Of a stretch of 64,000 nucleotides of DNA, positions 1,011-20,326 are shown one piece after another. The translations under genes were made by a program, and so were the position numbers. Under the pieces are notes generated by a model. The model was not told the origin of the DNA and made no database searches. It was given only the letters and a program-made list of their open reading frames with translations. The DNA is from a virus: UHGV virus genome UHGV-1963645. One strand, written 5' to 3'. Every line of letters starts with the position of its first letter. Position 1 is the first letter of the stretch.

Positions 1011-1018
1011 GGCATGAC

Positions 1019-1192: not shown

Positions 1193-1194
1193 AT

Positions 1195-5542: not shown

Positions 5543-5569
5543 ATCACACCTTTAATCACTGATTGGGCT

Positions 5570-5770: not shown

Positions 5771-6134
5771 ACAATCTACGTAACGTGTCGGCGACAGAAG
5801 ATACAGATATCTCGCCAGTCGCAGCGCCTACGGTAAGGTCTGCCAGTTCAGGTGAATCAAATACCTGCACCCCGTTACGGCGTAGAAATAGCAGCGCACT
5901 GTTTAGCGCGGTACGCTTATTGGCATCATTGAATATATGCCCTCTCGCTGTAGCCACCAGGTAGGTGGCGGAGACTTCGAAAAGGTCGGTGATCTCTTCG
6001 TAGGCAACTCTGGCCTGAACTCTCCCGATAATGGCCTCTGCCCTACCCGGATCAGACATTCCCGGCAGGCCGCCGTAGCGGCTTATATTCGCATCATGAA
6101 GCGCAACAAGTTCTTCCGGTGATATATGTCTCAT
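5754..6134 (-). CDS. doc: Doc toxin (Fic-family) of phd-doc addiction module
   Basis: 126-aa protein MRHISPEEL...[19 protein letters not shown] matches recalled P1 Doc; overlaps phd stop. Confidence 0.95.
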
Positions 6135-6355
6135 TATCGGTTAACCAGTTCCTTGTTGGTGGAGTCCAGGGTGTCAAACAGGGATGCAAATTCAGCATCC
6201 AGCGCCGCTTTTTTGTAGGCTTCGAAAGTAGCCTTGCTGACAATTACTGCTGGCTCACGGCCTCTGCGGGTGATTTCAACCTCTTCCCCGGCTTCAACAT
6301 TGTTGAGCACTTCAGAAAGGTTGCCGCGCGCGGTACGGAAGTTAATGGATTGCAT
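6134..6355 (-). CDS. phd: Phd antitoxin
   Basis: 73-aa protein from [40 protein letters not shown]; immediately upstream of doc. Confidence 0.9.
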
Positions 6356-6427
6356 AAACACCTCGTGTACTCGTTATGTGTACACAATTATAAACTTCAC
6401 AGGCATAAAGCACCAGCACTTTGCAGC

Positions 6428-6817
6428 TTAAATAACCGGACAATCATCAAATTCCCCACTTCGGGCATCATTGATGACATGAGTGATCACACCAAAAACA
6501 GCATTACTGCCCGTGTATCCATCGTCATCTACTGGTAACGCCTCTTTCTTCCCGGTGCTTAAGTCCTCCAGGTGCTGGCGCGGATACTTCCTGTATCTCT
6601 TTATGCGATATTCACCCTCCATAGCGCACACAAGCAGAGAACCATCAACCGGAGTAAGCGAGGAATCAACCACCAGCAAAGCTCCCTGCAATATTCCCTC
6701 ACGGTGATGGCTATCAGCTGCCCGCATGAAGTAGGTCGCTGAAGGATGTCTAATTATCTGCTGATCAAGAGAAATTCGGCTTTCAACATAATCCGCCGCA
6801 GGAGAAGGGAAGCCCAT
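6428..6817 (-). CDS. humD: UmuD-like translesion synthesis accessory protein HumD
   Basis: 129-aa ORF with UmuD'-like peptidase-fold C-terminal region; LexA box 20 nt upstream. Confidence 0.8.
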   Translation of the reverse strand: MGFPSPAADYVESRISLDQQIIRHPSATYFMRAADSHHREGILQGALLVVDSSLTPVDGSLLVCAMEGEYRIKRYRKYPRQHLEDLSTGKKEALPVDDDGYTGSNAVFGVITHVINDARSGEFDDCPVI

Positions 6818-6837
6818 AGCGTTTTACCTCAATGATA

Positions 6838-6853
6838 CTGTTTATTCATACAG
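6838..6853. promoter_or_regulatory. LexA (SOS) box
   Basis: CTGTTTATTCATACAG fits CTGT-N8-ACAG, directly upstream of humD start. Confidence 0.6.
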
Positions 6854-6940
6854 TATACATTGAAAAGGCATAGTTTGTGAAAGCGGGGTTTGTAGGCGCG
6901 CCACGCTGGGGGCTAATCACATTTCTCCCCCATCTTGCCG

Positions 6941-7192
6941 TTATTTTTTTGGTGCATCCTCGTTCTGATACACCGGATCGCTCCCTTTTGGCAACTGGAG
7001 GCTTAACTGCCGGTAGTGCCGTAGCCGTTCCATGAAATAGGCGCGCAGGTTTTCCGGTTGCTCACGGGCCACCTGCTCTGCAATCACAGGTATATTCAGC
7101 CGTTCTTTGTAAGCAACGCCGCTGGCGGCAAGGTCTACGTTCACCTTGTCTCGCTCTTCCTGGCTTTTAGCTGCTATATTTCGATCTGACAC
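6941..7192 (-). CDS. hot: Homolog of DNA polymerase III theta subunit (HolE-like)
   Basis: 83-aa protein ...[43 protein letters not shown]... resembles E. coli HolE. Confidence 0.8.
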
Positions 7193-7559
7193 AAGAAACC
7201 TCCAGGAGTTAGTGGATCAGGCACATGCACAATAACGTTCTCAATGTTAGCCGTTCAATTCAGACAATCAGAGACTGCACCAGTGTGGTGGCATCAATCC
7301 CATTGCGAAACAGCATAGACGAACTGCAAATTCGTGTATTGAATCCGAATCAGGCTAATAAGCAATTGCGCTTTATTTTGACGCTGAAAAGTGAAACAGA
7401 GGGGATAAAGCACAGCGTAAAAGTGTTTTCTGAGGCCATTCTGCTTAATGGGAAGCTCCGGCATCTGGTAAGGCCAGAACGTCAATATCCTGACGTCCTG
7501 GCGCGTGAAAAAGACCTTCTTTCTGAAGTTCAGGATAGGGTGATCGATTTCGTCAAATG

Positions 7560-7925
7560 CTATCCCCTGCATTGAGGGCAGGTGTTCCCTTCCGCAAAGT
7601 AGGGAAAATTGCTATCAAGTTCATCACACCATCTGCGATGGTCGTAGCACCAAAACGCCTCCCACGGTGCACGGAAATACTTCATCCACCAGGACACTCG
7701 ATCAGGTATATCTGCTGGTGGCAGTTCTTCTGGCAATAATTTGCCTGATAATTCCCTTTCCGCCCGCGACAGCATTTTTTTGAGGCTCGCGTTCTCTTTT
7801 TCAAGCTCATCTACGCGCACCTGTAATTCAGCTTTCGTTGGCATGGTCCACCTCATGCTTTTCAGCCACCAGCGGCAATAAAGCCCTGGCCATCTTATGA
7901 ACCAATAGTGCATCAATAATGCCAA
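7560..7925 (-). CDS. Hypothetical protein (probable internal start MPTKAELQ...; coiled-coil then Cys-rich C-terminus)
   Basis: ORF in minus-strand block; start ambiguous; overlaps end of upstream gene. Confidence 0.3.
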   Translation of the reverse strand: MALLMHYWFIRWPGLYCRWWLKSMRWTMPTKAELQVRVDELEKENASLKKMLSRAERELSGKLLPEELPPADIPDRVSWWMKYFRAPWEAFWCYDHRRWCDELDSNFPYFAEGNTCPQCRG

Positions 7926-8910
7926 GCGTATGCCCCGGCTTAATGTTTAATGCCGCCTCAAGGCGACACCTTTCCAGGCCACTTTTCTCGGCTTGTTTAT
8001 GATGATCTGGTGTAATAACGTCGCCCAAAACACGGCTAATTCTTTCTCGTAATTGCTGGGTGCCAGCACACTTGATCGCTGTATCGTGGAGACGGTTAAC
8101 CAGTTCGCGATAAACATGCGGCTTAATTCGGATACGTTCACCGGTGACGCCCTTTCCTGGTGCTGGCACCGAACTATCCGGAATATCCGGATAGTTGCCA
8201 GCCAGTCTACGCAAAACAGCCTTAACAGCCTCAATACGGTCATCATCGCAACTTTCCAGCGTATCTATGCGATCGAGCATGATGATGGCGTTATCAATAT
8301 CAGGATTGCCGGTCCACTCATTACCGCGATTGGATTCGGCAGTCTGGTTGCCGCGTACTGGTTGATTCTCGGCTTTACCCTGTCTGTCGTTGCTGCATGA
8401 ATGCCCTTCCAGCCAGACCAGTGCTTGTCGCATGAAATACGCAATATGCTTGCCGTGGTAATCGTCTTCATCGATGTGAAAAGCGATACTGCGGATATAT
8501 TCAATTGCGTTTTCAATGGCCTCTAACGCTATCGGTGCTGGCGGAGTGGTATATAGTTTTCGACATTTGTTTATCCAACCGGCATGGTCAGGCGTGTCTG
8601 TAAAGCGCAAATCGTCTTCGTAGCACTCACGACTTCGTTCTTTCCATTCCGTCCACGGAACACCGCTATTCCAGGTGGGACGAGTGCAGGACTGATACAG
8701 AACAGGCTCTGCTTCCAGTGATGCCAGTGCAATCCGTGCCAGCTCACGCACAACTTCCGGCGGCGCGTAACGGTCATTCAGGTCATCCCACAGGCGTAGC
8801 ATGTTATCGCTACCAGGGTGAACATCCTCGTTAGTTCCGGCCAGCGCACTAATAACCTCATCGGCTGCTTCAATAATTTTCTGTGCCTGTTCTCTGGTAA
8901 TAGTGGTCAT
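7828..8910 (-). CDS. Hypothetical protein, member of MTTIT N-terminal paralog family
   Basis: 360-aa ORF; N-terminus MTTITREQAQKIIEA...ELARIALASLEAEP shared with 9343-9738 and 9946-10410. Confidence 0.6.
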   Translation of the reverse strand: MTTITREQAQKIIEAADEVISALAGTNEDVHPGSDNMLRLWDDLNDRYAPPEVVRELARIALASLEAEPVLYQSCTRPTWNSGVPWTEWKERSRECYEDDLRFTDTPDHAGWINKCRKLYTTPPAPIALEAIENAIEYIRSIAFHIDEDDYHGKHIAYFMRQALVWLEGHSCSNDRQGKAENQPVRGNQTAESNRGNEWTGNPDIDNAIIMLDRIDTLESCDDDRIEAVKAVLRRLAGNYPDIPDSSVPAPGKGVTGERIRIKPHVYRELVNRLHDTAIKCAGTQQLRERISRVLGDVITPDHHKQAEKSGLERCRLEAALNIKPGHTLGIIDALLVHKMARALLPLVAEKHEVDHANES

Positions 8911-8920
8911 TTGTTATGCC

Positions 8921-9118
8921 TCAATACACGAAATCTGTTTTAAATTCATGGTTACATTCTGGACAGCATGTTTCGTAACCTTTTATTTCTTCACATGCCT
9001 GTTTAGCTCCAGAAAACTCCCAGAAATCAGCATCACAAAGCAGATCGAAATTGTGACCGCATTTTGGGCATTCGGTATCAAGTGACAGATTCCAGTAAGC
9101 AGTGGTGTTTTTATCCAT
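8921..9118 (-). CDS. Small zinc-ribbon protein
   Basis: CPKCG...CCPECNH motif pairs; inner start MDKNT abuts next gene. Confidence 0.45.
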   Translation of the reverse strand: MDKNTTAYWNLSLDTECPKCGHNFDLLCDADFWEFSGAKQACEEIKGYETCCPECNHEFKTDFVY

Positions 9119-9119
9119 A

Positions 9120-9341
9120 TCAGTCTCCTTTACCCGCTGCTTTCTCCTGCTCTTTAGCAAGCCGCTCCGCTTCTCTGAAATCCCAGTCAACTCGACGTGC
9201 TATATCAATTGCAGAACGCACGGTACGTTCAATTAGCGTATCCAGATTATCGATTGTCATTGCCATATCTGGATTGCGAGATAAAATCTCCGCCCTCTGA
9301 ATCTGCCAGTTGTTGCAGGTTTCAAGTAATGAGTTAGCCAT
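9120..9341 (-). CDS. Hypothetical small protein
   Basis: Tightly packed in operon (inner start MANSLL abuts neighbours). Confidence 0.4.
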   Translation of the reverse strand: MANSLLETCNNWQIQRAEILSRNPDMAMTIDNLDTLIERTVRSAIDIARRVDWDFREAERLAKEQEKAAGKGD

Positions 9342-9342
9342 A

Positions 9343-9738
9343 TCACTTTCCTTTCCCATGAAGCATAGCCGCGCGGCAGGCATTCCAGCCTCTCACCTCT
9401 GCAATAGCGGCAACAGCATCAACCGCGTACATGCTAAGAGGATTAGGCATTGGTTTTTCTTCCGGTACTACTGGCGCTGGAGGGGCGGCGTAAATACCCT
9501 CTATCACTAAATGTTTGCGCTCAAAATCATCTGGCTCTCGATGATATACGTAACTCCAATCACCAAGGTTATCATTGCGCCTGCAACGGAAACCTATCGG
9601 CTCGACTTCCAGCGCTGCCAGAGCAATTCGTGCCAGTTCTTCCGCTTCTTCTGCTGGCAGTACAACGTTGCTACCAGGTCCGTATGTTTCGCGCCACTGC
9701 TTGATTGTCAGCAGTCGCTCTTTGGTTATAGTGGTCAT
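9343..9738 (-). CDS. Hypothetical protein, MTTIT family
   Basis: N-terminus MTTITKERLLTIKQW...EELARIALAALEVEP paralogous to 7828-8910. Confidence 0.6.
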   Translation of the reverse strand: MTTITKERLLTIKQWRETYGPGSNVVLPAEEAEELARIALAALEVEPIGFRCRRNDNLGDWSYVYHREPDDFERKHLVIEGIYAAPPAPVVPEEKPMPNPLSMYAVDAVAAIAEVRGWNACRAAMLHGKGK

Positions 9739-9944
9739 TTGTTAATCCTCAAAACTTTATGCCCGGGCGCAAAAGCACGCGTTTTGTCTTTGCTTATTCG
9801 CCAGCCATCCTTGCGCGCCTCTTTTGCACAGCCAGCCCATGACGTACCGATATACTCACCGAAGTCTGGCACTGGATATACACCTTCCGTACACTGGCGG
9901 CAGTCACAATAGAGATGCATTGTGTAACTTGCGGCAATAGCCAT
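9735..9944 (-). CDS. Small Cys-rich protein
   Basis: 69-aa ORF with CDCRQC motif; 4-nt overlaps on both sides. Confidence 0.45.
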   Translation of the reverse strand: MAIAASYTMHLYCDCRQCTEGVYPVPDFGEYIGTSWAGCAKEARKDGWRISKDKTRAFAPGHKVLRINK

Positions 9945-9945
9945 A

Positions 9946-10410
9946 TCACCCTCCTTTACCCTGAAGCATGGCGTCGCTCCGCTCTATACTATCCAGCGCG
10001 ATTCGCAGTGCCTGAATTGTGGTAGTGCTATCGTTTGGGGCTATTCCATATCGCTCGAATACAGCTAAATGGTTGCGCATAATCTCAGGCGTAAGCTCTT
10101 TGTAAGCATAAGCAAGAGGCTCTGATGCATTATCCGGCACAACCGACGCAGGCGCGGCAGCATAAACAGGAATAACGTCCGCTTGCTCTTTATTGCTTTC
10201 ATCCGTTAAAGCCCAGAATAATTTCCCGGCCGGATGTTTGAAAATATAAGCAACTGGTTCTGCACTATCAGCTTCGCGCCGCTTCTGTAGCTCTGCTGCC
10301 ATTGCTCTCACGACTTCAACTGGTGCCCTTGCAGCAAACTCTATGTTGGTGATCAGCTCATTAAGATATTGCTCGCTGGGATACTGTTTCTTATTGGTAA
10401 TAGTGATCAT
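9946..10410 (-). CDS. Hypothetical protein, MTTIT-related family
   Basis: N-terminus MITITNKKQYPSEQYL...VEVVRAMAAEL resembles the two paralogs. Confidence 0.55.
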   Translation of the reverse strand: MITITNKKQYPSEQYLNELITNIEFAARAPVEVVRAMAAELQKRREADSAEPVAYIFKHPAGKLFWALTDESNKEQADVIPVYAAAPASVVPDNASEPLAYAYKELTPEIMRNHLAVFERYGIAPNDSTTTIQALRIALDSIERSDAMLQGKGG

Positions 10411-10922
10411 GCCGCGTTTCCTTCTTTCTTATTAACAATTACACCGTCATATATTTCATTAAGGTGCCCTCTCAACTCCATGCGCCTTAATGCAGATAAC
10501 ATGTAATCGCATTCAACCTGCTTATTTCCAGTAAATGGCTTATCGTCAGGATTACCCCAACAGCAATTACCCTTGGGCCACCCATGTACTTTCCGTACTC
10601 TTCCGTTAACAACGTGAAGTAATCCCCAGCCAGGTGGTAAATCCTCAATTGAAATAATTCCCGGCTCACTAATAAAGAATCGCCAGTCGCCCATTCCAAG
10701 AGACGGATTTTTACGGAAACGCTTTTTTCTATCTGCCAACAAGTCAGCACGAGAACACTTCGCCTCTATCAAGCATGATGCTGAACTTCTGAATCCCATA
10801 GCATCTGGCTGTTCTCCGGTGCTGGTTACAGCTATAAAGCGGTCATGAAAGCAAACCTTGAACCCGTTGCGCTTAAGGAACTTGTACGCAATCTGACAGA
10901 GTTCGCGGTGTGTTAACGCCAT
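10407..10922 (-). CDS. Hypothetical protein (possible nuclease-like fold)
   Basis: ORF with inner start MALTHRELCQ that abuts next gene at 10924. Confidence 0.45.
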   Translation of the reverse strand: MALTHRELCQIAYKFLKRNGFKVCFHDRFIAVTSTGEQPDAMGFRSSASCLIEAKCSRADLLADRKKRFRKNPSLGMGDWRFFISEPGIISIEDLPPGWGLLHVVNGRVRKVHGWPKGNCCWGNPDDKPFTGNKQVECDYMLSALRRMELRGHLNEIYDGVIVNKKEGNAA

Positions 10923-10923
10923 C

Positions 10924-11118
10924 TCACTCTCCTTTAGTGCGCAGATAACAGTGGTTTTTCCAGCGGTTTTGCGCCGCGCTGGGCTTTTTGCAAAAACCAC
11001 AATCCATCATCCCGTAATATTTCATCAACCCCATCCGTCGGTTGCTGAGTCTCACCCACTGCCAGACGCCAGGAGCGTTTCTACGAACTAACAGAATCTT
11101 TGCTTTACGGTTTTTCAT
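10924..11118 (-). CDS. Small basic Cys-containing protein
   Basis: 64-aa ORF packed against the downstream gene. Confidence 0.3.
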   Translation of the reverse strand: MKNRKAKILLVRRNAPGVWQWVRLSNRRMGLMKYYGMMDCGFCKKPSAAQNRWKNHCYLRTKGE

Positions 11119-11290
11119 CGCTTTGCTCTCCTGCGTCTCTTTGCTGCTCGTCGTGCCGCTGCAATACCGGTATGGCGGCGCTTTGGTGCCGGGATGATGT
11201 TGTCAGCCATCAGGACATGTGGCTTTGCAATTAGCGCAGAAGCCCAAAAACGAGTCGGGTACGGTAACAAGCCGATACATGCCACACGCA

Positions 11291-12013
11291 TTACTCACCT
11301 CCTTTGATGCGAATGCCTGCGGCGCGGATTGCAGCGATGACTTCAGAAACTTTGTATGCCATTACCGTTTGGTAATCATCGTGAAAATCTGTTCGATGAA
11401 GCATGCTGCTACGTTCCGGGAGCGATATTTCCCGAGCATCCAGTTCCTTAACGCGTTCCTCCAGTTCGTAGACCCTGCATTGTTCTCTATCATCAATCAG
11501 ATATAACCCAAGACATTCGCTTTCTACCCAACCGCCAAAATCATGATCGTAACGCTCACATGAAAACTCACCGTCACCGTCCTTTGTTGGAATGGTGTAA
11601 CTATCTAATGGGCCACCATATGTCGGCACATTTCCCAATGTTGGATGCTCAATCCACATGAAAAATGCACGTCCGGTTATTGGGCAAATATCTGGCCGCC
11701 ATTGGTTACGAACAGCCTTGGTTTCGGATAATTCTTCAGCGTGTTGTTTTACTTCCTCAAGCTCAACTCTCAGCTTCCCTACCGTTAGCGCAATATCCCC
11801 GTTCTTTCTTTCCCGTTCATCCAGCAGCGCCAGCACGGTTTCTGGTCCGGTCAGAAATTTGAAGGCGTTGAGCGCATCAATATCCACACCGTAATCTTTA
11901 AGTTCCTGTTCACTTAACAAATCATCATCAGCTGGCAACATTAACAGGCGTTCCATTGCTGGAATTGCACGTTCCGCCGCCTCACGCAGTGCCTGGTAAT
12001 TAATTTCGCTCAC
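11291..12013 (-). CDS. Hypothetical protein (paralog pair with 12010-12675)
   Basis: N-terminus MSEINYQALREAAERA vs MARMTIDYQVLREAAEQA in neighbour; 4-nt overlap. Confidence 0.6.
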   Translation of the reverse strand: MSEINYQALREAAERAIPAMERLLMLPADDDLLSEQELKDYGVDIDALNAFKFLTGPETVLALLDERERKNGDIALTVGKLRVELEEVKQHAEELSETKAVRNQWRPDICPITGRAFFMWIEHPTLGNVPTYGGPLDSYTIPTKDGDGEFSCERYDHDFGGWVESECLGLYLIDDREQCRVYELEERVKELDAREISLPERSSMLHRTDFHDDYQTVMAYKVSEVIAAIRAAGIRIKGGE

Positions 12014-12675
12014 TGGTTGCCTCCTTTGCGAAGCTGGGCAGCAAAGTCAACTAACCACTCAGTCATTTCAACCTTCCCTACCAGGTCTGAACCAGGGTGC
12101 ATACAGCAATCACTCTGCGCCGCTTTGAAATCCTTATACTCATATTCTTGGGCCACCAGATTTTTTGCAGCTTCTATAGCAGCATCCACCCCCTGCGCCC
12201 GCACTTCAGACAGGAAAGCATCGGTAGCTGGAGTTTCGCTGTGGTGCAGGGCATCGTTGATAATCATTGCAGCAACTCCGGCCTGCCCTGCATCCGTGAC
12301 CGACACATGCTCAAGAGTTACGGCCATTGCGTGTTTCAGCCCAGCGTTCTCCGCCACCAGCGCCGCGAGATTAGTCTCAAGCTCTGCAATTCGACACATA
12401 GCATCAATATTTGTGTCCTCCAGGCGCTTAATTTCATCCAGTAGAGCCAGCACAACTTTGGGTGGGATAGCCGCGATATAACGGGCATTGGCACCAGCGT
12501 TTCTCTGTCCATCAATGCCAGGCCAGTCAATAAAGTATCCGCAATGCCTACCCTCAGACGTATGCGCAGGATAAGTGCCGTTTTGCCCCGGCAAAATATA
12601 TGCTACCCATTCATCTTGCGTTGCCTGTTCCGCCGCCTCGCGCAGTACCTGATAGTCAATTGTCATTCTCGCCAT
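12010..12675 (-). CDS. Hypothetical protein (paralog pair)
   Basis: Shared N-terminal motif with 11291-12013; ALLDEIKRLE coiled-coil segments in both. Confidence 0.6.
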   Translation of the reverse strand: MARMTIDYQVLREAAEQATQDEWVAYILPGQNGTYPAHTSEGRHCGYFIDWPGIDGQRNAGANARYIAAIPPKVVLALLDEIKRLEDTNIDAMCRIAELETNLAALVAENAGLKHAMAVTLEHVSVTDAGQAGVAAMIINDALHHSETPATDAFLSEVRAQGVDAAIEAAKNLVAQEYEYKDFKAAQSDCCMHPGSDLVGKVEMTEWLVDFAAQLRKGGNQ

Positions 12676-13307
12676 CCTTCACAGTTGTAATCACTACAGC
12701 CTTCAAAATCATATGGGCTGTACTGCCAGGTGATTTTTCCGCAATGCGGACAATTCCAACGCACCTTCCCGCTTCGCGACTTCTTTCTTCTGTTCTGCTC
12801 TTTCAACCAGTCAGGCATGACCAAACCTGCGCCCTGAACCATTGTTCTGCGGTTAAAGTTATTGATATTGAACGTCCGGCGCTTTGCTGCATCAGCAATG
12901 GAAAATGGCAACCAAACTATTCCTGGTTCGTTTTTGTTGGCGACGCTAAAGATGGTCGCTTTACTGAAGTCATCTGTTGGCAATCCACCGTGTTGAAGCC
13001 AGTAAACATCGTTGCCGTTCCAGCTACCTTTTTTGTAGGCCACATACGCAGTGCAATCTGACTCAATCAGGCTTTCTGTAGGGATGTACTGGCAATCAAC
13101 GTGCCACACAGCCATTGCATCCACACTATCGGCACAAACAGGCTGATCGATATCTCGCCCACAACTCCAGGCTTTTTGGGCTTCTTCCAGCGTGTAAACA
13201 TGAGCGCGATCGATATCAGAACTGTAACCATTGCCGTTATGGCAATGGAATGAGGCGTTATTACCCACAGTTTCACGCAAGCACATCATGTAAAAGCGGT
13301 TATTCAC
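12663..13307 (-). CDS. Hypothetical Cys-rich protein
   Basis: 214-aa ORF with C-terminal CPHCG...C..C zinc-ribbon-like motif. Confidence 0.5.
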   Translation of the reverse strand: MNNRFYMMCLRETVGNNASFHCHNGNGYSSDIDRAHVYTLEEAQKAWSCGRDIDQPVCADSVDAMAVWHVDCQYIPTESLIESDCTAYVAYKKGSWNGNDVYWLQHGGLPTDDFSKATIFSVANKNEPGIVWLPFSIADAAKRRTFNINNFNRRTMVQGAGLVMPDWLKEQNRRKKSRSGKVRWNCPHCGKITWQYSPYDFEGCSDYNCEGWRE

Positions 13308-13584
13308 TGGTTGCCTCCGCTTCCCACGTTTTCAGACTTTCACCACAGAACGGGCAAAATGAAACTCGAATAGGCGATTTAGAAAATTCACCAGACCGCA
13401 GCATGATCAGGTCTTGTGAATGAATTAATTCATGGTTATAGATTTTGTATTTCAGCAGACCTTTTCGCGTCGTGTATTCAGCGTCATGCTCCAGGGATTG
13501 TGCCAACGCCGCGCACGGTTCTATCTTGTTGCCATTAATTTGGCATTTTGACTCACTCACTGGTTGCCCCCTGAATACGCTCAA
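13300..13584 (-). CDS. Small zinc-ribbon protein
   Basis: 94-aa ORF with CPFCG motif. Confidence 0.4.
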   Translation of the reverse strand: MSVFRGQPVSESKCQINGNKIEPCAALAQSLEHDAEYTTRKGLLKYKIYNHELIHSQDLIMLRSGEFSKSPIRVSFCPFCGESLKTWEAEATSE

Positions 13585-14293
13585 ACTCGATTACCCACAC
13601 CCAGGGATTAGCGTTCCAGCTTTCTTCACCATAGATGGATTCCCACAGGCGCTGGAACGCAACCTTGGCCATTGCGAAATCTCCCTTGGGAGTTAGGAAT
13701 GTTCCCGGGTGATCAGGAAGCAAACTTCCAGCAGGCTGAACGCCCTCATCCCTTGCATCGCATTCGCTGATATCGTTCAACCGCTCAACGCGCACGTTGG
13801 TAATTTCCAACAGAATGCGTGATGCCCATCGCGGCATGTGAATTGATGGACGCCACCCACCATCAAACTTTTCATTCACAGTGTGAGGTTTCCAGTCGGC
13901 ATCATCGGGTATCGACCATAAACCGTAATCACCAGGCTTTTGCTCACAACTGGCCCGATAAATCCTTGCTGCGTTCTTCTCATCGCCACGACAAAGGTTG
14001 TCGTTCCAGTCCACACTGCAACCATCTTCATTGCCTAATATCGCCCATGTTTCACGAACCCAAATTCGATCGCCGACGATACCAAAGGGGCAATTGAAAA
14101 CACTGCTTACACCATCAGCCCCGTACCACTGAAAACCTGCACCAATTTTTCTAACCATCACTGGTGCTTCTGGACCAACTTCCGCAGGCTGATTTTTCAT
14201 TATCCGCCGCGTCTGCGTTTTCCTTCCTTCGAGGATGGCCCGGACCATCTCATCGTTGAAAATCATGCCGCGCTCTTTCACTTCGCCTTTCAT
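13553..14293 (-). CDS. Conserved phage protein (MIFNDEMVRAILEGRKTQTRR N-terminal motif)
   Basis: 246-aa ORF; first gene downstream of the operator at 14472-14488. Confidence 0.55.
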   Translation of the reverse strand: MKGEVKERGMIFNDEMVRAILEGRKTQTRRIMKNQPAEVGPEAPVMVRKIGAGFQWYGADGVSSVFNCPFGIVGDRIWVRETWAILGNEDGCSVDWNDNLCRGDEKNAARIYRASCEQKPGDYGLWSIPDDADWKPHTVNEKFDGGWRPSIHMPRWASRILLEITNVRVERLNDISECDARDEGVQPAGSLLPDHPGTFLTPKGDFAMAKVAFQRLWESIYGEESWNANPWVWVIEFERIQGATSE

Positions 14294-14471
14294 GCATCCC
14301 CCTTACCCATGCGCGACGATGCCGCCAAAAGTGATAGAGAACAGCCAGAAATAGATCGCGGCCATAATGATTTTGAATGCCGTGTTCATATTTTCAGCTC
14401 CTGTGATTGATTGGATACATGCCGCGCCTTGCGGCATGTTTTTATTTTCACTTTCTCTGTTTTAAAAATCA

Positions 14472-14488
14472 AGATTTATTAGAGCAAT
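14472..14488. promoter_or_regulatory. C1-operator-like site
   Basis: AGATTTATTAGAGCAAT, 16/17 to reverse complement of ATTGCTCTAATAAATTT. Confidence 0.55.
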
Positions 14489-14994
14489 TATTGTTGATGA
14501 AGAAGCGCATTTTCATATTCCCTGACCATTAACGTAAGTACGCCGTGACTCCTGAAAACACGCGCCACTTCAATCTTATCTTCCAGCGCGAACGCAATTT
14601 TACTTAGACCAATTTTCTTCAGGAGATCAATCTTTGCAGGGCCGTCATTTCTGTCATCGGTGGCAGGACGCATAGATAGCAAAGGCTCAGCCCCATTTGT
14701 TACGTGCTTACGCAACCAAGCTCGTGTTTTATCCCTGGCTATCTCACAGCGCCCGGTTACAAACCAGAGCGTGTAAATGCTGGACAACTGGCGCACCATA
14801 TCAATAACTGGAGTGATGGGAGCATCAGTGTCACAGGCAAGGTTAAACTCGTTCCAGTGCTCTGTTAATGCACCTTTGCCAGGTGGTGGAAGTAAATGCA
14901 GCCTGTCTTCCGTTGCCTCTGATATCGTCCCATCAATATCTACTATGACGATGTACGGACGTTCCTGGTGTGCGTGTTTATTGAAAATACTCAA
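14488..14994 (-). CDS. HAD-superfamily phosphatase-like protein
   Basis: VIVDIDGTIS motif (DxDGT) near N-terminus; 168 aa. Confidence 0.55.
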   Translation of the reverse strand: MSIFNKHAHQERPYIVIVDIDGTISEATEDRLHLLPPPGKGALTEHWNEFNLACDTDAPITPVIDMVRQLSSIYTLWFVTGRCEIARDKTRAWLRKHVTNGAEPLLSMRPATDDRNDGPAKIDLLKKIGLSKIAFALEDKIEVARVFRSHGVLTLMVREYENALLHQQ

Positions 14995-15066
14995 ATGCCC
15001 TCCTCATTGGACGAAAAAAATGCTGGTGGGCGCACTCCACCAGCATTAAAAGTGACACTGTAACTA

Positions 15067-16329
15067 TCAGCGAACGTAAATAGTGCCGCCGTTCTCTTTT
15101 TCCCATGCATCGCTACGTGCATAGCAAACATCGAGAAGTCTTCTTGCCGCAGTTTCCTCTAAACCCAATTCGACAACCAACTGCTCATGACGGCGGGTAA
15201 CCACATCAAACAGGGTATGCAGCCCTTTAGTTGCCAGATCATCAATGAATTCCGGTTCGAACGGCAGCTCTGCCTCTGCCAACATAACCTCTTGCGCCCA
15301 CTCAACTCGACGGACCAGTTCCGGGCGGCGGCTTTCCATCTCTTTACAGATCAATTCATGGAAGAACTCTACCCAACCTTCCGGCTGGAACTCGCGGAAA
15401 ATGGCCAACGGCTGGAAGTTTGGCATCAACCATTCGTTGATCCGGATATCAATGGCATAGCCCATGTCGCAGCAGAACTGATAAGCAAAGTCCAGCTTAG
15501 AAACGATATAAGGACGCTCGTTATTGAACTCTTTAGGCGATGAGATCCCATAAGCCAGGAGGCGCGGGAAGAAGGAGATTTGCCCTAACGTCGGATGAAG
15601 TTTTCTTGCAGGGAAACGGCGCTCAGTAATGCCATACATTTCCTTCTTGAGCGTCGCAAATTTGGCATTCTCATTAACCAGCGCGGTAACCTCTGCTTTT
15701 TTATTAGCAAATGCCACGCGCGCTTCGCTTGCATCTTTAATAGTTTTTTTGAGCTGTTGGTTAAGGTCGGCGACCTGCTTACGCAGTTCCTGTCGCTCGC
15801 TTTTAGCTTTGTTATAGCGTTTCTCAAGGTTAAAAGGATCAAGTTTCATGATCTCTTTATATTGAGATTTTAGCGTTGAAATCTGTGAGTTCCGCAGTTC
15901 AACCATCGCGGTCATTTCATTGAGCTTTGTTTCCAGCTCAATGCTTATACGTTCGGCATTATCAGCACGCTGGTTGGCGTCATGCGTCGCATCGTCGATC
16001 GCGTCCTGTTGCTGGCGTTTCAAATGTTCAATTTGCAGCTGAAGCTCTTCAATTTCTTTACCCTTCAGACCGAGATCCAACTGCATATTTTCAGCTGCAT
16101 CTACCAGGGAGTTATGGCTATCAGCTTCTGCGTTATAAACATCAATAAGCTGTGCGTGAAGCATCTCCGCTGACTGAACCGCATTATCAAAAAAACGCGC
16201 TGTGAGGTCATCACAAATAACGCGGCGTTGCGCGGCCCGGATGTTCTGGATAATGGCCGGGATACCGGCATTCAGGACGTCAGGGATAGATACATTTTCG
16301 ATTGATTGGTTTTGTGCTGAAGTGCTCAT
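15067..16329 (-). CDS. Large coiled-coil protein
   Basis: 420-aa ORF with long heptad-like Q/E/K-rich central region. Confidence 0.55.
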   Translation of the reverse strand: MSTSAQNQSIENVSIPDVLNAGIPAIIQNIRAAQRRVICDDLTARFFDNAVQSAEMLHAQLIDVYNAEADSHNSLVDAAENMQLDLGLKGKEIEELQLQIEHLKRQQQDAIDDATHDANQRADNAERISIELETKLNEMTAMVELRNSQISTLKSQYKEIMKLDPFNLEKRYNKAKSERQELRKQVADLNQQLKKTIKDASEARVAFANKKAEVTALVNENAKFATLKKEMYGITERRFPARKLHPTLGQISFFPRLLAYGISSPKEFNNERPYIVSKLDFAYQFCCDMGYAIDIRINEWLMPNFQPLAIFREFQPEGWVEFFHELICKEMESRRPELVRRVEWAQEVMLAEAELPFEPEFIDDLATKGLHTLFDVVTRRHEQLVVELGLEETAARRLLDVCYARSDAWEKENGGTIYVR

Positions 16330-16563
16330 TTCAAAGTTCCGTATTAGCTTGTGCTTCGGTCATTTTTCCTAAGTATGAAGGAGGAAGGACTACGCAATTT
16401 GTATCCAGTCCCTCACCTATGGCAGCCTGTAAAATTCTGGCTAAGGTGAGTCTCTTGTTGCGATACCTGGTGATGACATGCCTGATACCGCCGGTCGGCG
16501 TAACAAAGGCGATCAGCCAGTAGTGATATTTCCGTCGGAATGGCCACATAGTGCACCTTGTAG

Positions 16564-16620
16564 ATTGCTCTAATAAAAAAACGTGATGAGTGTACATCAC
16601 GTTTTAAAAATATGGAATTA
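16564..16620. promoter_or_regulatory. Pair of C1-operator-like sites in opposite orientation
   Basis: ATTGCTCTAATAAAAAA (16564-16580) and GGAATTATTAGAGCAAT (16604-16620) flanking a probable promoter. Confidence 0.45.
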
Positions 16621-16631
16621 TTAGAGCAATA

Positions 16632-17333
16632 TTATTCTGATTCTTGCTCAAAAAATGAGCTGATAAGGGGAAGCCAATCCTCTGACACTTCGCGAGGTCG
16701 CGGTTTGCCGTGGAAAAAGATTATTCGGCAGTCTTTTGGTAATGCCCCATTCCCCCTGGAGTAACGCGCGCTCGCATATTTTGAACCAGGTTCCACAACA
16801 TCGGCCTTGTAACTTACAAACCATCCTGGATACAGATCCTGAAATGCTGGTGTATCATCGCCCATAACCTTTCGTAAGAACCCCTGGTCACCCCAGCACT
16901 CAGTAGTGACACAACGAGAAATCCAACCTTCCGGATCTTGCCAGAATGAACTCCAGATATGCGCTTTAACACTATTTGGTATCCACAGGGCACCGCTGCC
17001 ACGATATTGTGGATGGTAAAAATCCCTAAGCATGGTGAAGCTGGTTGGTGGATGCTCTAGGATTGGGCGTATATCACCGGCAATAACCGTGTCCAAATCC
17101 AGATAGAACAGATCATCGGTTATATCCGGTCGGAACAACTCTATTTTCGCCCACCAGCCACGGCACTTTTGCCACTGGTTGATCAATGGGACAACTTTGA
17201 CGCCAGGTACATGTAAACGCTTCAGGTCTGTCAGGCAAATAATTTCATAGCCTTTTGGCAGTTGATTAACCAGCCACTGCACATCGGAAGCGTTATAGTC
17301 ACCACCAGAGCGAAAAACTAAAGCAATCTTCAT
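16632..17333 (-). CDS. Putative nucleotide-sugar transferase-like protein
   Basis: 233-aa ORF with YLDLDTV (DxD-like) motif; 4-nt overlap with ppp. Confidence 0.4.
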
Positions 17334-18022
17334 GCTGCACCATCACCTTTCACTTTCATCAATGTCAGGTTTCCGCAAAATACGGCACCAGTGTCGATAT
17401 ACTGCTGATTCCAGAATGTCTTCGGGCTTTTCACCGGAGTGTGACCAAAGATAAAACGATCTGCGCCCGAAATTTCGCCACCAATATCATCCATCGAATC
17501 ACTGATACGCTCGCGCGCCCAGACAACGTTGAAAAGCGGCACCTCCTTACCGAATTGGTATTCATTATCCGGATAGTCGGCATGGGCTATAACGATAGTT
17601 TCTTGCCCGGTGTTCAACTCAATGATATAGGGCAGACGCTTTACCAGCTCCACCAGCGCCCAGGCTAATATTTCCTGATCAGTGTCCAGCATGAAGAACC
17701 ATTGTCCGCCATTCATTAGCCAGTTATTCACGTTGCCATCTGGACTTAACGCATCAATCATCAGCCGCTCATGGTTCCCCATCACTGCCCTGAACCAGGG
17801 CATCTGCAATAGTTCAAGACATTCGACATTTTCAGTACCGCGATCGATAAGGTCGCCGACCGATATCAGTAAATCCTGCGCCGGGTCAAAATCCACACGA
17901 TGGAGTTCGGACATCACTCTGGTGTAGCAACCATGCAGATCACCAACAACCCAGACATTCCTGTATTTGGTACCGTCGATACGGTGATAAATTGTGGGTG
18001 CCATCATGTATTCTTCAGCCAT
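17330..18022 (-). CDS. ppp: Ser/Thr protein phosphatase (metallophosphatase, lambda-PPase-like)
   Basis: GDLHGC, GDLIDRG and GNHE motifs. Confidence 0.8.
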
Positions 18023-18630
18023 TCTTTAAGAGTCATCTGCGGAATACCTCCCATTTTCCCGCATGAAACAACGTCAATCCGTTCACGCGCAGACTGGAAT
18101 AACAAAGGCAGGTGACTTAGATTTTTTGGCGTGCCGCCGGAGTGAACGCGTGGTTCTTGTGTAGCGTCAACGCCCACCAGGGCGACATGTTTGAATCCGA
18201 TATGGAAAGCCAGGTTCAGAGCGCCATATGCACTATTGCCGCTGGCAATTTCATTCTCATCTTCGCAAAGTCCGAAATGTGCGGACCAGCGCCACGCCCA
18301 CCACTCGGGAGAATTCGTATTTTTTGGCTCCATGCCACGTTCAGCCACACGACGGAAGCACAGAACGCCGTCTCTGACTTCACGTTCTTTAACATCGGGT
18401 AGTGCCATGCAATAACAAACACCACGGCGACGGCGGCCACGACCAACGCGCCGCATATTGTCTGGCGATGGATCAAGTGTGAAAAAATAAGAAGCGCGGT
18501 TCAGCCAGTCGATGGCCCCATTGACCGCTATAATCGGCACTCCGCGCGGCGCAACAAAGTTTGCGGCGCTTGGGCCACTGCCGACGATAATAACGCGATC
18601 ACTGCCTCTAAATTTATTCTTGGGAAACAT
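18004..18630 (-). CDS. Hypothetical Rossmann-like protein (VGSGPS family, paralog B)
   Basis: N-terminal [10 protein letters not shown]...IIAVN motif shared with 18528-19190. Confidence 0.5.
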
Positions 18631-19190
18631 TGAATTGCACTGCTCCTACTTGCATTCAAAATATGTAAATCTGCGTGTTTTTTGCGGGTATCCAGGAACT
18701 GCTGTTGCCATTTTGAAATAGAAACCTGCGTTGGATTCCGTAGGGCTTGAGGGTGCGCGCCATGCCAATGAAGGCCGTTTTGCAGAGAACAGTCATAGCC
18801 GACTAATACCACTACTTCAGCCCCTGATTCAGCAGCCAGACTGATAGCCTGCGCGCCGCTATTTACCCCTTCCGCCGGTCCACAATATCGCCTGTACTCC
18901 AACGAAAATGATTTCGCCGCCGCCAGGTTGGCTGTCACTTTGCGGAATCTCCCTCCCGGTATGGTGGATCCGTATTGCTTCCACCATGACAAATCACCGG
19001 CGTATAAGGCATAAATGTCATCGAACATCTGCCAGGAATTGTTAACCGCTATGATTGAACAGCCAGTTTTTTCTATAGCAGCACAGTCCTCACGAGTGAG
19101 TGACGGACCGCTACCGACACAAAAAACAGTCCTAGTCGCCCTGGGTGGTATGTTCATTCTCAGCTGCAAATTCAGCCTCCAGGCGAGCAT
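18528..19190 (-). CDS. Hypothetical Rossmann-like protein (VGSGPS family, paralog A)
   Basis: FCVGSGPS...IIAVNN...VVVLVGYD motifs; about 100-nt out-of-frame overlap with paralog B. Confidence 0.5.
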   Translation of the reverse strand: MLAWRLNLQLRMNIPPRATRTVFCVGSGPSLTREDCAAIEKTGCSIIAVNNSWQMFDDIYALYAGDLSWWKQYGSTIPGGRFRKVTANLAAAKSFSLEYRRYCGPAEGVNSGAQAISLAAESGAEVVVLVGYDCSLQNGLHWHGAHPQALRNPTQVSISKWQQQFLDTRKKHADLHILNASRSSAIQCFPRINLEAVIALLSSAVAQAPQTLLRRAECRL

Positions 19191-19353
19191 TCATTTCAGC
19201 GATTACAGGGTCCACTACAGCATCTGTTTCCTGTTCATTACGCGGCATGACCGATGCCAGCGACTCATAATTAACCTTGGATGACACGATTATTCTCCCG
19301 ATGTTAAAGTGCGCTACCACAAAGAGCGTAAATGCACTAATTAATTTATTATT

Positions 19354-19932
19354 TTAAGCAGCATGCAACCACTTATCGCCGTTCAATACATGCTCAATAG
19401 CCTCACCCTTTTTAAGACTTATGTATTCCAGGATGGCGGTAATCGCTTGTTCTGCACCATACGCAAGAACAACGTAGTAGCCTTCCTCTCTAAGCCTGCG
19501 CATCCAGGCGATCTGCTCTTTCGTCGGGGCTTTACCATTTGGTTCTTTAAGCTCAATTCGCATGCCGTGATAAATACCGCATGCTTTATCGAGACTCATG
19601 TCCGGATAACCTTTTTTCTGCCCTTCAGCCTTCATTTTCCCGGCGGTTGCTTTTGAACGCTTCCCTCCGTTAGGCGTTGCATGCAACAGCTCATAGATGT
19701 CAGGGTGCTTGCGTTCGAAGTAATCAAAAATGAAAACCTGCTCGAAGTGCTCGCAATTTCCGTCGCGCAGGTCTGGGTTCTTTGCCAGTGCTGCAAGTGC
19801 CTTCGCATGTGGAGAAACTTCTTTTACCGGCGCAAGCGATAAGAATGGATCCTTTTTGGTTTTTGGCCTGGACCGCCCCTTATTTCGACGCTCACTAAAA
19901 GCCTGAAACTCTTCCTCAGTAAAGCGCAACAT
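19354..19932 (-). CDS. VRR-NUC domain nuclease-like protein
   Basis: GYPDMSL...GMRIELKEP...EQIAWMRRL pattern typical of VRR-NUC. Confidence 0.55.
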   Translation of the reverse strand: MLRFTEEEFQAFSERRNKGRSRPKTKKDPFLSLAPVKEVSPHAKALAALAKNPDLRDGNCEHFEQVFIFDYFERKHPDIYELLHATPNGGKRSKATAGKMKAEGQKKGYPDMSLDKACGIYHGMRIELKEPNGKAPTKEQIAWMRRLREEGYYVVLAYGAEQAITAILEYISLKKGEAIEHVLNGDKWLHAA

Positions 19933-19934
19933 AA

Positions 19935-20180
19935 TCAGTCAAATCCTGCCGGTCGCATGCCATATTTACGCTGTTTTGCGGCCTGCTCTTCCCTGTGCCA
20001 TTGCGCACACTCAGCGTCACAATAGATGCCTGATTCGATCGGTTCATTGCAGTAACGACACTTCCCTGTAAATACCTGGCTCACGACCTGTGCCTGCTTT
20101 CTGATGTTATCGATGGCCATGTCTTTGAGAGCTTCTAATTGATTCATGCTCAGCTCTGCATCATCAACACGTTCTGCCAA
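19935..20180 (-). CDS. TraR/DksA-type C4 zinc-finger protein
   Basis: CRYCNEPI...CDAEC motif in 81-aa protein. Confidence 0.55.
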   Translation of the reverse strand: MAERVDDAELSMNQLEALKDMAIDNIRKQAQVVSQVFTGKCRYCNEPIESGIYCDAECAQWHREEQAAKQRKYGMRPAGFD

Positions 20181-20326
20181 TTTTGTTTCCTCGTGAAGAA
20201 CCTACTTAAGGGCAGAATGATACATTTCACAATCTAAATTGCACTAATAATTTTCTTTTATTGAGTTAAATATTCAACAAATGACTAGCGATAGAATCAC
20301 CATCATCTATTTCTGGCAGGCTGACT

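Follow-up and report, generated by a model that had tools for sequence, protein, structure and literature searches.

A P1-like block of accessory genes is a mosaic carrying a mobile trio of putative glycosyltransferases

Two phosphatases, a nuclease and several transferase-like proteins encoded side by side on one strand raise the question of whether they form a single modification system or an assembly of unrelated genes. We addressed this for positions 14472-19932 of a 64,000-nucleotide stretch of virus genome UHGV-1963645 (the window), for which an original prediction had proposed one accessory operon modifying a host or phage macromolecule. Judged from its sequence, the block corresponds to pmgM-pap of a P1-like phage-plasmid: positions 14300-20200 are 98.5-98.9% identical at the nucleotide level, over 100% of their length, to P1, P7, JL22, SJ46 and RCS47, with gene order and operators in common. 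The genes run pmgM, pmgN, pmgO, pmgP, ppp, pmgQ, pmgR, pmgS and pap. Open reading frame lengths, a 103-nt pmgO/pmgP overlap and C1 operators Op82, Op83, Op86a, Op86b and Op88 are identical to those of P1 and P7, with no material difference within the block; the P7 names are upf81.2, hdmA-D, ppp, shtA/B and pap. The pmgM-to-pap genes were annotated previously, and the majority of the domain labels are present in RefSeq. All reading frames first described were found on the minus strand where they had been placed; the P1 identity had been overlooked. The features are:

14472-14488, minus: C1 operator (P1 Op88 / OpmgT), 1 mismatch to the consensus; the same place in P1 is annotated as C1-controlled
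14488-14994, minus: pap, stand-alone HAD phosphatase of the T4 Pnk / Pnkp1 3'-phosphatase type, motif DIDGT
15019-15047, minus: terminator-like hairpin between pmgS and pap, 11-bp stem and T run
15067-16329, minus: pmgS, 420 aa, central coiled coil, phrog_1660
16331-16549, minus: pmgR, 72 aa, essential for head completion / head-tail joining, located as in P1
16564-16580, plus: Op86b, C1 operator of the pmgR promoter (motif match and P1 annotation)
16578-16605, minus: terminator-like hairpin closing the pmgN-pmgQ unit, flanked by Op86b and Op86a
16614-16630, minus: Op86a, C1 operator of the pmgR promoter (motif match and P1 annotation)
16632-17333, minus: pmgQ, GT-A fold glycosyltransferase resembling CAZy GT8 (retaining hexosyltransferases), DLD motif
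17330-18022, minus: ppp, lambda-phosphatase-type Ser/Thr (PPP family) metallophosphatase
18004-18630, minus: pmgP, Maf/GT42-like (MptE-like, DUF115) glycosyltransferase-fold protein, PmgO paralog
18528-19190, minus: pmgO, Maf/GT42-like glycosyltransferase-fold protein
19132-19287, minus: pmgN, 51-aa acidic protein encoded at the head of the pmgN-pmgQ unit
19331-19347, plus: C1 operator (P1 Op83 / Oppp), 3 mismatches, annotated in P1 and P7
19354-19932, minus: pmgM, VRR-NUC (PD-(D/E)xK) nuclease, motif GYPDMSLD...IELK
19935-20180, minus: pmgL, DksA/TraR-like zinc-finger protein (phrog_54 1.7e-13; P1 annotation), first gene of the pmgL-pmgM unit
20238-20254, plus: C1 operator Op82 (O26), 2 mismatches, P1 annotation

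The whole window holds 12 C1 operator-like 17-mers, against 0.25 expected from shuffles, with mismatches counted from the consensus ATTGCTCTAATAAATTT. The block is framed by such sites, as predicted; the one at 14472-14488 lies at its edge and controls the downstream pmgT unit. Op83 lies between pmgM and pmgN, just 5' of the latter. Op82 falls within the region that controls the divergent pmgL and gene 26; this region contains the P1 late promoters as well and differs from P1 at 2 of 150 positions (99% mean column identity). With five C1 operator-like sites and two terminator-like hairpins as boundaries, the block falls into four or more transcription units and is not the one operon proposed. 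Two of the operators and both strong hairpins inside the block had been missed, and pmgL lay outside the coordinates considered.

The genes surrounding the transferases point to diverse functions. PmgM, described earlier as a VRR-NUC nuclease-like protein, is a predicted VRR-NUC junction nuclease: it resembles stand-alone VRR-NUC resolvases and matches a solved VRR-NUC structure (4qbl, E 3.5e-17) and phrog_5702 'Holliday junction resolvase' (4.8e-27), with a Pfam VRR_NUC score of 21.3 bits, slightly below the 23.8 cut-off. The proposed lambda-type Ser/Thr phosphatase is Ppp, which carries the three PPP motifs (GDLHG / GDLIDRG / GNHE) and scores 2.3e-15 and 57.9 bits with Metallophos and 1.1e-80 with the PrpA/PphA model; the P1 annotation gives 64% identity to lambda phosphatase. 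Its gene shares 19 nt with pmgP and 4 nt with pmgQ. Only the P1/P7 lineage has ppp between these two genes; it is missing from that position in loci L083-L086, L089 and L108, and occurs alone in phage D6. The HAD-type phosphatase, Pap, falls in the polynucleotide-kinase 3'-phosphatase clade, from which its activity is predicted (Pfam HAD_PNKP 1.3e-11, 45.3 bits; cut-off 27.6). Its family profile matched Pnkp1 (4xrp, 1.9e-26) and T4 Pnk (1ltq, 8.9e-21), with no match to KdsC. Unlike T4 polynucleotide kinase and bacterial Pnkp1, Pap has no kinase half; six of the seven ~300-aa Pap relatives scanned combine an AAA_33 kinase domain with HAD_PNKP. PmgS, the 420-aa coiled-coil protein of the original prediction, has weak SMC/Rad50 coiled-coil matches (residues 62-235) and no relatives among solved structures, and is confined to P1-like elements.

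Deletion of P1 pmgR leaves heads and tails unjoined and is complemented in trans (PMC9024508), and pmgN is essential by CRISPRi and nonessential by deletion (PMC10695390); neither gene had been noticed in the block. PmgM, Ppp and Pap are each dispensable for plaque formation, ppp and pmgS are nonessential, and a pap deletion is viable. The block is a mosaic of functionally unrelated, mostly dispensable genes. The idea that the gene combination implies a single modification system is unsupported for several reasons: the transferase trio and ppp separate in relatives, pmgR is an essential head-completion gene, and Pap lies in the polynucleotide-kinase 3'-phosphatase clade.

The sole coherent module in the block is PmgO-PmgP-PmgQ, three transferases. 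The two Rossmann-like proteins recognized originally by VGSGPS...IIAVN share (V/A)GSGPS...IIAVN and are paralogous (hhalign profile-profile probability 97.8%, E 1.2e-12, 159 columns). By profile comparison they are small proteins of the Maf/GT42-like, sialyl/Kdo-transferase fold. With Pfam MptE-like they reach 23.4 (PmgO) and 21 bits (PmgP), short of the gathering cut-off of 34.6; CstI is among the top matches of PmgO, and PmgP has 328 relatives. The likeness to Maf and GT42 enzymes includes an N-terminal G-x-G-P-S nucleotide-binding strand ('GNGPS' in CstII) and an invariant Asp/Ser/Asp (D66, S111, D133) that may match the acidic-Ser-acidic residues required for Maf activity. An HWHGxH motif is present in PmgO but not in PmgP. 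Maf, a cytoplasmic protein O-glycosyltransferase, is the closest solved fold, and Maf enzymes transfer Kdo from CMP-Kdo onto Ser/Thr in E. coli (bioRxiv 10.1101/2020.06.03.131540). At ~200 aa against ~630 aa, PmgO and PmgP are without the large flanking domains by which Maf is thought to recognise flagellin; unlike Maf they form a paralogous pair, with no flagellin involved. PmgQ, the predicted DxD-motif transferase, has a GT8-like GT-A fold with the motif as DLD. LgtC is among its best matches and E. coli WaaJ aligns weakly; identity to GT8 retaining glycosyltransferases (LgtC, glycogenin, GlyE, Skp1 alpha-galactosyltransferase, WaaJ/WaaO) is just 12-17%, and Pfam Glyco_transf_8 gave no match. 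Its family is small (41 matches) and essentially phage-borne.

The out-of-frame overlap of about 100 nt noted between the paralogs measures 103 nt, with pmgP in the -1 frame of pmgO, and is conserved in relatives; hence it is not a sequencing error. The pmgP ATG, preceded by its own AGGAG, is nested within the conserved 'QCF' codons of pmgO and kept in five enterobacterial-type lineages, and the last ~22 residues of PmgO are a non-conserved read-through tail over pmgP. A natural O-P fusion protein (P0092) occurs in L083.

Gene neighbourhoods indicate that pmgO, pmgP and pmgQ move together between unrelated phages. Contiguous trios lacking ppp, pmgM, pmgS and pap occur in a Pseudomonas prophage (L084/L107), Citrobacter rodentium phage phiNP (L085/L109/L111, H54), Zhongshania (L092/L113), L110, L112, L114, L115 and phage EP_H11 (L186); non-P1 trio loci lack pmgS throughout. 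Ochrobactrum (L086) and Methylophilaceae (L102) have pmgP and pmgQ only. Four distinct HK97-like prophage types carry the module directly 3' of the major capsid gene, before head-tail connector/head-completion genes, and in L110/L112 it follows terminase and portal. The chromosomal copies of the three genes in Pseudescherichia flank giant Ig-repeat adhesins, namely a 1177-aa inverse-autotransporter adhesin and further Big_1 repeat proteins. The position between lysis and terminase genes in phiNP and L083 is a typical 'moron' site and fits any accessory role. A divergent P1-like locus, L089, has kdsB (CMP-Kdo synthetase) in the block (270 bits; cut-off 155), directly coupled to a Pap homolog; P1-like L108 has a second kdsB-like gene at the same relative position, split over two reading frames. 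No kdsB was found in the 64-kb window.

Our best inference for the trio, as yet unproven, is cytoplasmic glycosylation of a protein, probably of the virion, using CMP-Kdo and UDP-hexose; together with the mosaic nature of the block, we give this explanation a probability of about 0.4. PmgO and PmgP would act as a pair, their expression coupled through the nested start codon, because one phage fuses them and the nested pmgP ATG is conserved. They would transfer a CMP-activated ulosonic acid, which in E. coli is most likely Kdo taken from the CMP-Kdo pool of the host; this donor is favoured because of kdsB in L089 and L108 (a linkage seen at just two loci) and the use of CMP-Kdo by Maf. PmgQ would add an alpha-linked hexose from a UDP-sugar. 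The three enzymes would jointly make a short cytoplasmic glycan on a protein, for which a virion (head) protein is the most probable candidate. Such a target is favoured because of the adjacency to capsid genes and to terminase and portal, the flanking of adhesins, and the protein O-glycosyltransferase activity of Maf. The C1 operator upstream of pmgN suggests action during lytic growth, after C1 repression is lifted. Tailed-phage capsids can carry glycans: phage-encoded transferases of mycobacteriophages Che8 and Rita decorate the major capsid protein (as summarised in PMC11256854). Those enzymes belong to other families and hosts, and Che8-type phages carry the transferase genes close to the genome 3' end (PMC11256854); no glycan is known from P1 or any other phage with PmgO, PmgP and PmgQ. 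Against the Maf-like reading stand the sub-cut-off MptE-like scores and the missing flanking domains, and against a virion target the distance of the module from the capsid gene in P1. A P1 virion proteomics paper reports no glycan, and a 3.2 Å cryo-EM paper and a tail-baseplate preprint are silent on glycans. Deletions of pmgO, pmgP and pmgQ give normal plaques and hence no phenotype from which to deduce a function.

The same trio could instead modify host LPS on the cytoplasmic side of the inner membrane, one example being the attachment of extra Kdo and hexose to its core. The P1 receptor, the LPS core, would be masked or truncated, excluding superinfecting phage or reducing progeny loss on cell debris. 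Lipo-oligosaccharide is the classic substrate of GT8 and GT42 enzymes (LgtC for PmgQ, CstI for PmgO, both LPS/LOS core enzymes), so fold cannot separate a protein from an LPS acceptor. Kdo, suggested by the kdsB linkage, is itself an LPS sugar, PmgQ aligns weakly with WaaJ, and the fused homolog has a faint precomputed match to WaaZ_KDO_III; direct comparison with E. coli WaaZ gave a probability of 14% over 28 columns only. Expression argues the other way. C1 repression would keep the genes silent in lysogens, the state in which converting the receptor would be an advantage, and the embedding between capsid and connector genes in the four HK97-like prophage types implies late expression, within minutes of lysis, which leaves hardly any time for old LPS to be exchanged for new; the Pseudescherichia partners are secreted adhesins and not LPS genes. 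We therefore consider LPS modification unlikely.

Far less probable is that the whole block, as first suggested, modifies one macromolecule, for example by DNA glycosylation/repair for anti-restriction. Its genes are adjacent, on one strand and all C1-controlled, ppp is translationally coupled into the transferase unit by its overlaps, and Pap is tied to kdsB in L089. Yet the parts separate freely (the trio without the rest, ppp alone in D6, L089/L108 without ppp), terminators and promoters lie inside the block, and Pap and PmgM group with 3'-phosphatases and junction resolvases that are each predicted to be self-sufficient. Mutants singly deleted for pmgL-Q, pmgS, ppp or pap behave normally for restriction on EcoA, EcoB and EcoK hosts. 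To our knowledge, the three transferase folds all differ from those of known DNA glycosyltransferases. Equally improbable is a programmed -1 ribosomal frameshift that would make a PmgO-PmgP fusion resembling the one in L083. The -1 frame and the X_XXY_YYZ heptamers T_TTC_CCA and A_AAT_TTA, in the pmgO frame shortly 3' of the pmgP ATG, are compatible with it. However, A_AAT_TTA is missing from L085, L088, L089 and L100, T_TTC_CCA merely encodes conserved Cys-Phe-Pro and is not in L085 or L089, such a heptamer arises by chance in 34 codons about once in eight (an estimate), and pmgP has its own AGGAG and ATG.

Outside the block the window is a mosaic P1 variant, P1-like records covering just 65-70% of positions 1-14400, and its pmgT allele differs from that of P1.

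The block at 14472-19932 is already known as the pmgM-to-pap stretch of phage P1, and its domain labels are public. Across 14300-20200, the sequence matched P1, P7, JL22, SJ46, RCS47, and other P1-like phage-plasmids at 98.5-98.9% nucleotide identity over the full length, with the same ORFs, gene order, and operator positions as P1. All minus-strand ORFs listed in the original prediction were present, and their names follow from mapping the block onto the curated P1 record. ORF lengths equal those of P1, so the block carries no frameshift relative to this reference. RefSeq labels pmgQ "glycosyltransferase", pmgO "alpha-2,3-sialyltransferase", pmgM "VRR-NUC domain-containing protein", and ppp "metallophosphoesterase". 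The observation thus stands, although the region it describes is known and annotated. E. coli genetics makes heavy use of P1, yet about one-third of its genes, those of the block included, are still labelled "putative morphogenetic function".

Genes (names mapped from P1), C1 operator consensus matches, and terminator-like hairpins in and beside the block
14472-14488, Op88, C1 operator consensus match
14488-14994, minus strand, pap
15047-15019, coding strand, strong terminator-like hairpin after pmgS (11-bp stem and T run)
15067-16329, minus strand, pmgS
16331-16549, minus strand, pmgR
16564-16580, Op86b, C1 operator consensus match
16605-16578, coding strand, strong terminator-like hairpin after pmgQ (11-bp stem and T run)
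16614-16630, Op86a, C1 operator consensus match
16632-17333, minus strand, pmgQ
17330-18022, minus strand, ppp
18004-18630, minus strand, pmgP
18528-19190, minus strand, pmgO
19132-19287, minus strand, pmgN
19331-19347, Op83, C1 operator consensus match
19354-19932, minus strand, pmgM
19935-20180, pmgL, just beyond the block as originally delimited
20238-20254, Op82, C1 operator consensus match

Elsewhere in the window, P1-like records covered just 65-70% of 1-14400, the remainder matching cargo of lambdoid/Stx phages, for which related records list ead/Ea22-like, DUF551, and HNH genes. At the pmgT position, the ORF (13553-14293, 246 aa) shares only 40-46% identity with its counterparts in other P1-like elements; PmgT of P1 itself has an annotated length of 309 aa. 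Coverage by P1-like records was 82-85% across 40001-64000, a stretch for which related records list a transposase or mobile element, and G+C falls to 0.376 at 52001-54000.

The consensus operator of C1, the repressor of P1 lytic genes, was matched 12 times in the window (0.25 expected), with five matches within or beside the block. Such sites frame the block, as had been noted, and further ones lie inside it. Based on these operators, the terminator-like hairpins, and the promoters annotated in P1, the block comprises at least four units: pmgL-pmgM, pmgN-pmgO-pmgP-ppp-pmgQ, pmgR-pmgS, and pap. The control region of pmgL (late promoters and Op82) differs from that of P1 at just 2 of 150 positions. 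The proposal of one accessory operon does not hold, since internal C1 operators and promoters and two hairpins divide the block and its components come apart in relatives. A C1 operator precedes the pmgN-pmgQ unit, which should therefore be on during lytic growth and off in the lysogen. Outside the block, a pair of C1 operator matches overlap on opposite strands (30656-30683; one perfect, one with 2 mismatches) and have the look of a bivalent operator, and single matches occur at 1175, 4481, 34189, 49641, and 51325. Between Op88 and the ORF in the pmgT position lies a strong terminator-like hairpin (14417-14439, plus strand; 10-bp stem, 6 G-C pairs, T run).

Within the second unit, PmgO, PmgP, and PmgQ (the three TRANSFERASES) have transferase-like folds. 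The two proteins singled out for a VGSGPS motif are paralogs as proposed (hhalign probability 97.8%, E 1.2e-12; SGPS, IAVN, D, NS(G/A), and G-x-D motifs aligned), and they share the fold common to Maf and sialyltransferases (PmgO model pLDDT 85.9). Both score below the gathering cut-off of the Pfam MptE-like family (PF01973, 34.6 bits; PmgO 23.4, PmgP 21) and are therefore filed by fold, not as curated family members; P0092, a 376-aa protein in which one phage (L083) has PmgO and PmgP fused, clears this cut-off with 44.6 bits. Residues D66, S111, and D133 are invariant in PmgO, and their D/S/D counterparts in PmgP do not vary either; these may correspond to the acidic-Ser-acidic catalytic set of Maf, which includes E324 and D415. 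True Maf proteins comprise 632 aa with flanking domains and a flagellin acceptor, whereas PmgO and PmgP (208-220 aa) do not have these domains; no flagellar genes were found near pmgO/pmgP. The PmgP relatives number about 330. A comparison of PmgP with the E. coli Kdo III transferase WaaZ reached an hhalign probability of 14% (E 0.002) over only 28 columns, and P0092 has a faint precomputed Pfam match to WaaZ. The DxD-motif protein, PmgQ, also proved transferase-like, with a GT-A fold and a DxD metal/nucleotide-sugar motif of the GT8 type in a confident AlphaFold model (pLDDT 94.3). Its family is small (41 matches), with D79-L-D81, H208, G209, P211, and P213 invariant. PmgQ matched no Pfam family at E <= 0.1 (Glyco_transf_8 included), and comparisons with 6mw5 (phmmer, E 0.086) and WaaJ (hhalign probability 35%) were weak.

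The ~100-nt overlap of pmgO and pmgP, flagged as a possible sequencing error, is instead a conserved arrangement, because the nested start recurs in divergent relatives: the overlap measures 94 nt in a C. rodentium prophage (L085), 70 nt in L088, 109 nt in L089, and 49 nt in L100. The pmgP ATG sits inside the codons for a conserved "QCF" near the PmgO C-terminus, with AGGAG 12 nt upstream, and the final ~22 residues of the PmgO tail beyond it are not conserved among homologs. HK97-like prophages have an overlap of ~11 nt or less. The arrangement is compatible with coupled production of two partners. Two X_XXY_YYZ heptamers (T_TTC_CCA and A_AAT_TTA, 18599-18615) lie in the pmgO frame right after the pmgP start, with pmgP in the -1 frame. 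A programmed -1 frameshift fusing PmgO to PmgP is unlikely because the heptamers are not conserved in the same four relatives, and they are probably due to chance or a consequence of Cys-Phe-Pro coding.

Distant genomic contexts came from exact-protein look-ups, from scanning genomes, and from a further viral scan, as the first viral contig scan gave only near-identical P1 copies; flanks of distant homologs were searched with a panel of P1 proteins. All of the following loci have PmgO, PmgP, and PmgQ side by side and lack ppp, pmgM, pmgS, and pap.

Loci with contiguous PmgO-PmgP-PmgQ
L084/L107, Pseudomonas prophages
L085, L109, L111, and H54, C. rodentium phage phiNP
L092/L113, Zhongshania, with an inserted SAM methyltransferase
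L110 and L112 (small elements) and L115, all having an additional, fourth GT-A-like gene
L114
L186, 111-kb phage EP_H11

PmgP and PmgQ alone were found in Ochrobactrum (L086) and Methylophilaceae (L102). In the divergent P1-like plasmids L089 and L108, pmgQ directly follows pmgP, and phage D6 carries ppp (89% identical) in a set of lambdoid cargo genes that includes none of the transferases; ppp is thus an insertion specific to a lineage, and the gene combination is a mosaic. The idea that this combination implies a single modification system is contradicted by the separation of its components in relatives, and given the patchwork nature of the block there is no point in seeking a single "modification operon". 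The PmgO-PmgP-PmgQ trio behaves like a mobile module for glycosylation, which we put forward as a testable lead, not a result; clean P1 deletion mutants exist for such tests (Gonzales et al. 2022). Extensions of the module are frequent (L083:11757-12335, L084:9254-9835, L110:7555-8139, L115:8222-8797, and L092:8570-9139). Several phages encode a fourth GT-A-like protein of ~190 aa with a weak Nucleotid_trans match; a SAM-dependent methyltransferase is added in L092, L113, and L114, and an unclassified 322-aa protein in EP_H11. These extensions suggest that the glycan differs between phages. As far as the literature searched shows, the mobile module, the PmgO-PmgP fusion, the adjacency to capsid and adhesin genes, and the kdsB link in two P1 relatives (see below) are undescribed.

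The remaining genes of the block fall into unrelated families, and the guesses of a VRR-NUC nuclease, a lambda-type Ser/Thr phosphatase, and a HAD-type phosphatase were borne out. PmgM aligns with a solved VRR-NUC structure (4qbl, E 3.5e-17) across its PD-(D/E)xK core (GYPD...E-x-K) and scores slightly below the Pfam VRR-NUC cut-off (21.3 vs. 23.8 bits). Ppp is a lambda-type PPP phosphatase (Metallophos 57.9 bits, cut-off 21.5) with the three motifs GDxHG, GDxxDRG, and GNHE (MGNHE); its match to the enterobacterial PrpA/PphA model (1.1e-80, 270.8 bits) stays under the equivalog cut-off of 326. Pap contains a HAD_PNKP domain (45.3 bits, cut-off 27.6) with a DxDGT motif (D19, D21, and T23 invariant) and belongs to the PNKP 3'-phosphatase clade, itself without a kinase domain. 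A library-wide search returned 3008 relatives, some of ~300 aa with an AAA_33 kinase ahead of the phosphatase, the architecture of T4 Pnk. Because of these kinase-fused relatives, and because the family profile matches Pnkp1 (1.9e-26) and T4 polynucleotide kinase (8.9e-21) and no sugar-phosphate phosphatase (KdsC structures included), Pap is predicted to be a stand-alone polynucleotide-type 3'-phosphatase. The same evidence led us to reject a KdsC-like Kdo-8-phosphate phosphatase role, an idea that arose from the coupling of kdsB to a Pap homolog in L089. PmgL has a DksA/TraR-like zinc finger, and for PmgS, a coiled-coil protein, neither solved structures nor Pfam yielded an informative relative. 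Except for pmgR, the block consists of dispensable genes. Plaques were normal, as was restriction on EcoA, EcoB, and EcoK hosts, when pmgL-Q, pmgS, ppp, and pap were deleted in frame, and CRISPRi concurs, pmgN excepted (PMC10695390). PmgR is an essential head-completion factor whose deletion leaves heads and tails unjoined (PMC9024508).

Clues to the substrate come from gene neighborhoods. Four distinct types of HK97-like prophage have the module right after the major capsid gene and ahead of head-tail connector/head-completion genes; it follows terminase and portal in the small elements L110 and L112, and occupies ordinary cargo positions in P1, phiNP, and L083. P7 curators label these genes "head morphogenesis". 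At five chromosomal loci of Pseudescherichia (L090-L095, e.g. L091:3337-9200), homologs of the trio flank an inverse-autotransporter adhesin of 1177 aa (IAT_beta and seven Big_1 repeats), with other Big_1/invasin-repeat proteins beside it and no phage genes detected with the reference-protein panel; this is a protein context, not an LPS one. Maf enzymes transfer Kdo from CMP-Kdo to Ser/Thr in E. coli (bioRxiv 10.1101/2020.06.03.131540). The divergent P1-like phage-plasmid L089 (L089:12658-13892) encodes a bona fide CMP-Kdo synthetase, kdsB (TIGR00466, 270 bits vs. cut-off 155), downstream of its pmgS homolog, preceded by an unclassified 271-aa gene and sharing 4 nt with the beginning of the Pap homolog. 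Another, divergent gene resembling kdsB occupies the equivalent position in L108 (L108:10763-11454), where it seems to be distributed over two reading frames. No kdsB was found within the window.

We hypothesize, at a probability of about 0.4, that PmgO and PmgP act as a pair moving an ulosonic acid, with Kdo drawn from the CMP-Kdo pool of the host as the probable sugar, and that PmgQ would add an alpha-hexose from a UDP-sugar. The glycan would be placed on a protein, with a virion or head component as the most plausible candidate, and this would happen in the cytoplasm, ahead of assembly or in its course. Counting against this mechanism are the absence of a plaque phenotype in the deletion mutants, the cargo positions of the module in P1, phiNP, and L083, and the absence of any reported glycan on P1 virions: two cryo-EM studies and a proteome paper report none, and our literature search found nothing on such glycans or on pmgO/P/Q function. 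The main rival is that the trio modifies the LPS core, the receptor of P1, a reading that the GT8 and GT42 folds and the Kdo link favor. C1 repression of the unit, the placement of the module in late operons of other phages, the neighboring adhesins in Pseudescherichia, and the weak WaaZ comparison speak against LPS as the target, and we regard it as unlikely. Modification of DNA and a single integrated system are both very improbable.

Protein glycosylation by the trio could extend beyond P1. More doubtful than the mechanism itself is a portable kit, shared by P1 and scattered tailed phages of Proteobacteria, in which a split Maf-like Kdo/ulosonic-acid pair and a GT8 hexosyltransferase would O-glycosylate a virion protein in the cytoplasm via host CMP-Kdo, and which would also decorate Ig-repeat adhesins in some Enterobacteriaceae. 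If true, phages of Gram-negative bacteria would gain their first known virion glycosylation system and protein-linked Kdo a natural example, and virion glycosylation would bear on the immunogenicity, stability, and host recognition of these phages; if untrue, the pmgO/P/Q genes are ordinary dispensable cargo. Four HK97-type major capsid proteins upstream of the module end in short Ser/Gly-rich tails (GSLSES, L084:6179-7375; SGATGS, L086:5900-7330; GNLSGAS, L092:5841-7214; GSLKDGS, L102:3396-4628), an observation that covers these four. In the window, the tail-fibre ORF at 62248-63984 contains several near-identical Ser/Thr-rich repeats (TTQKG-VQLSS-TNSTSE-LAATPKAVKAAYDLA), which could conceivably serve as O-glycosylation sites.
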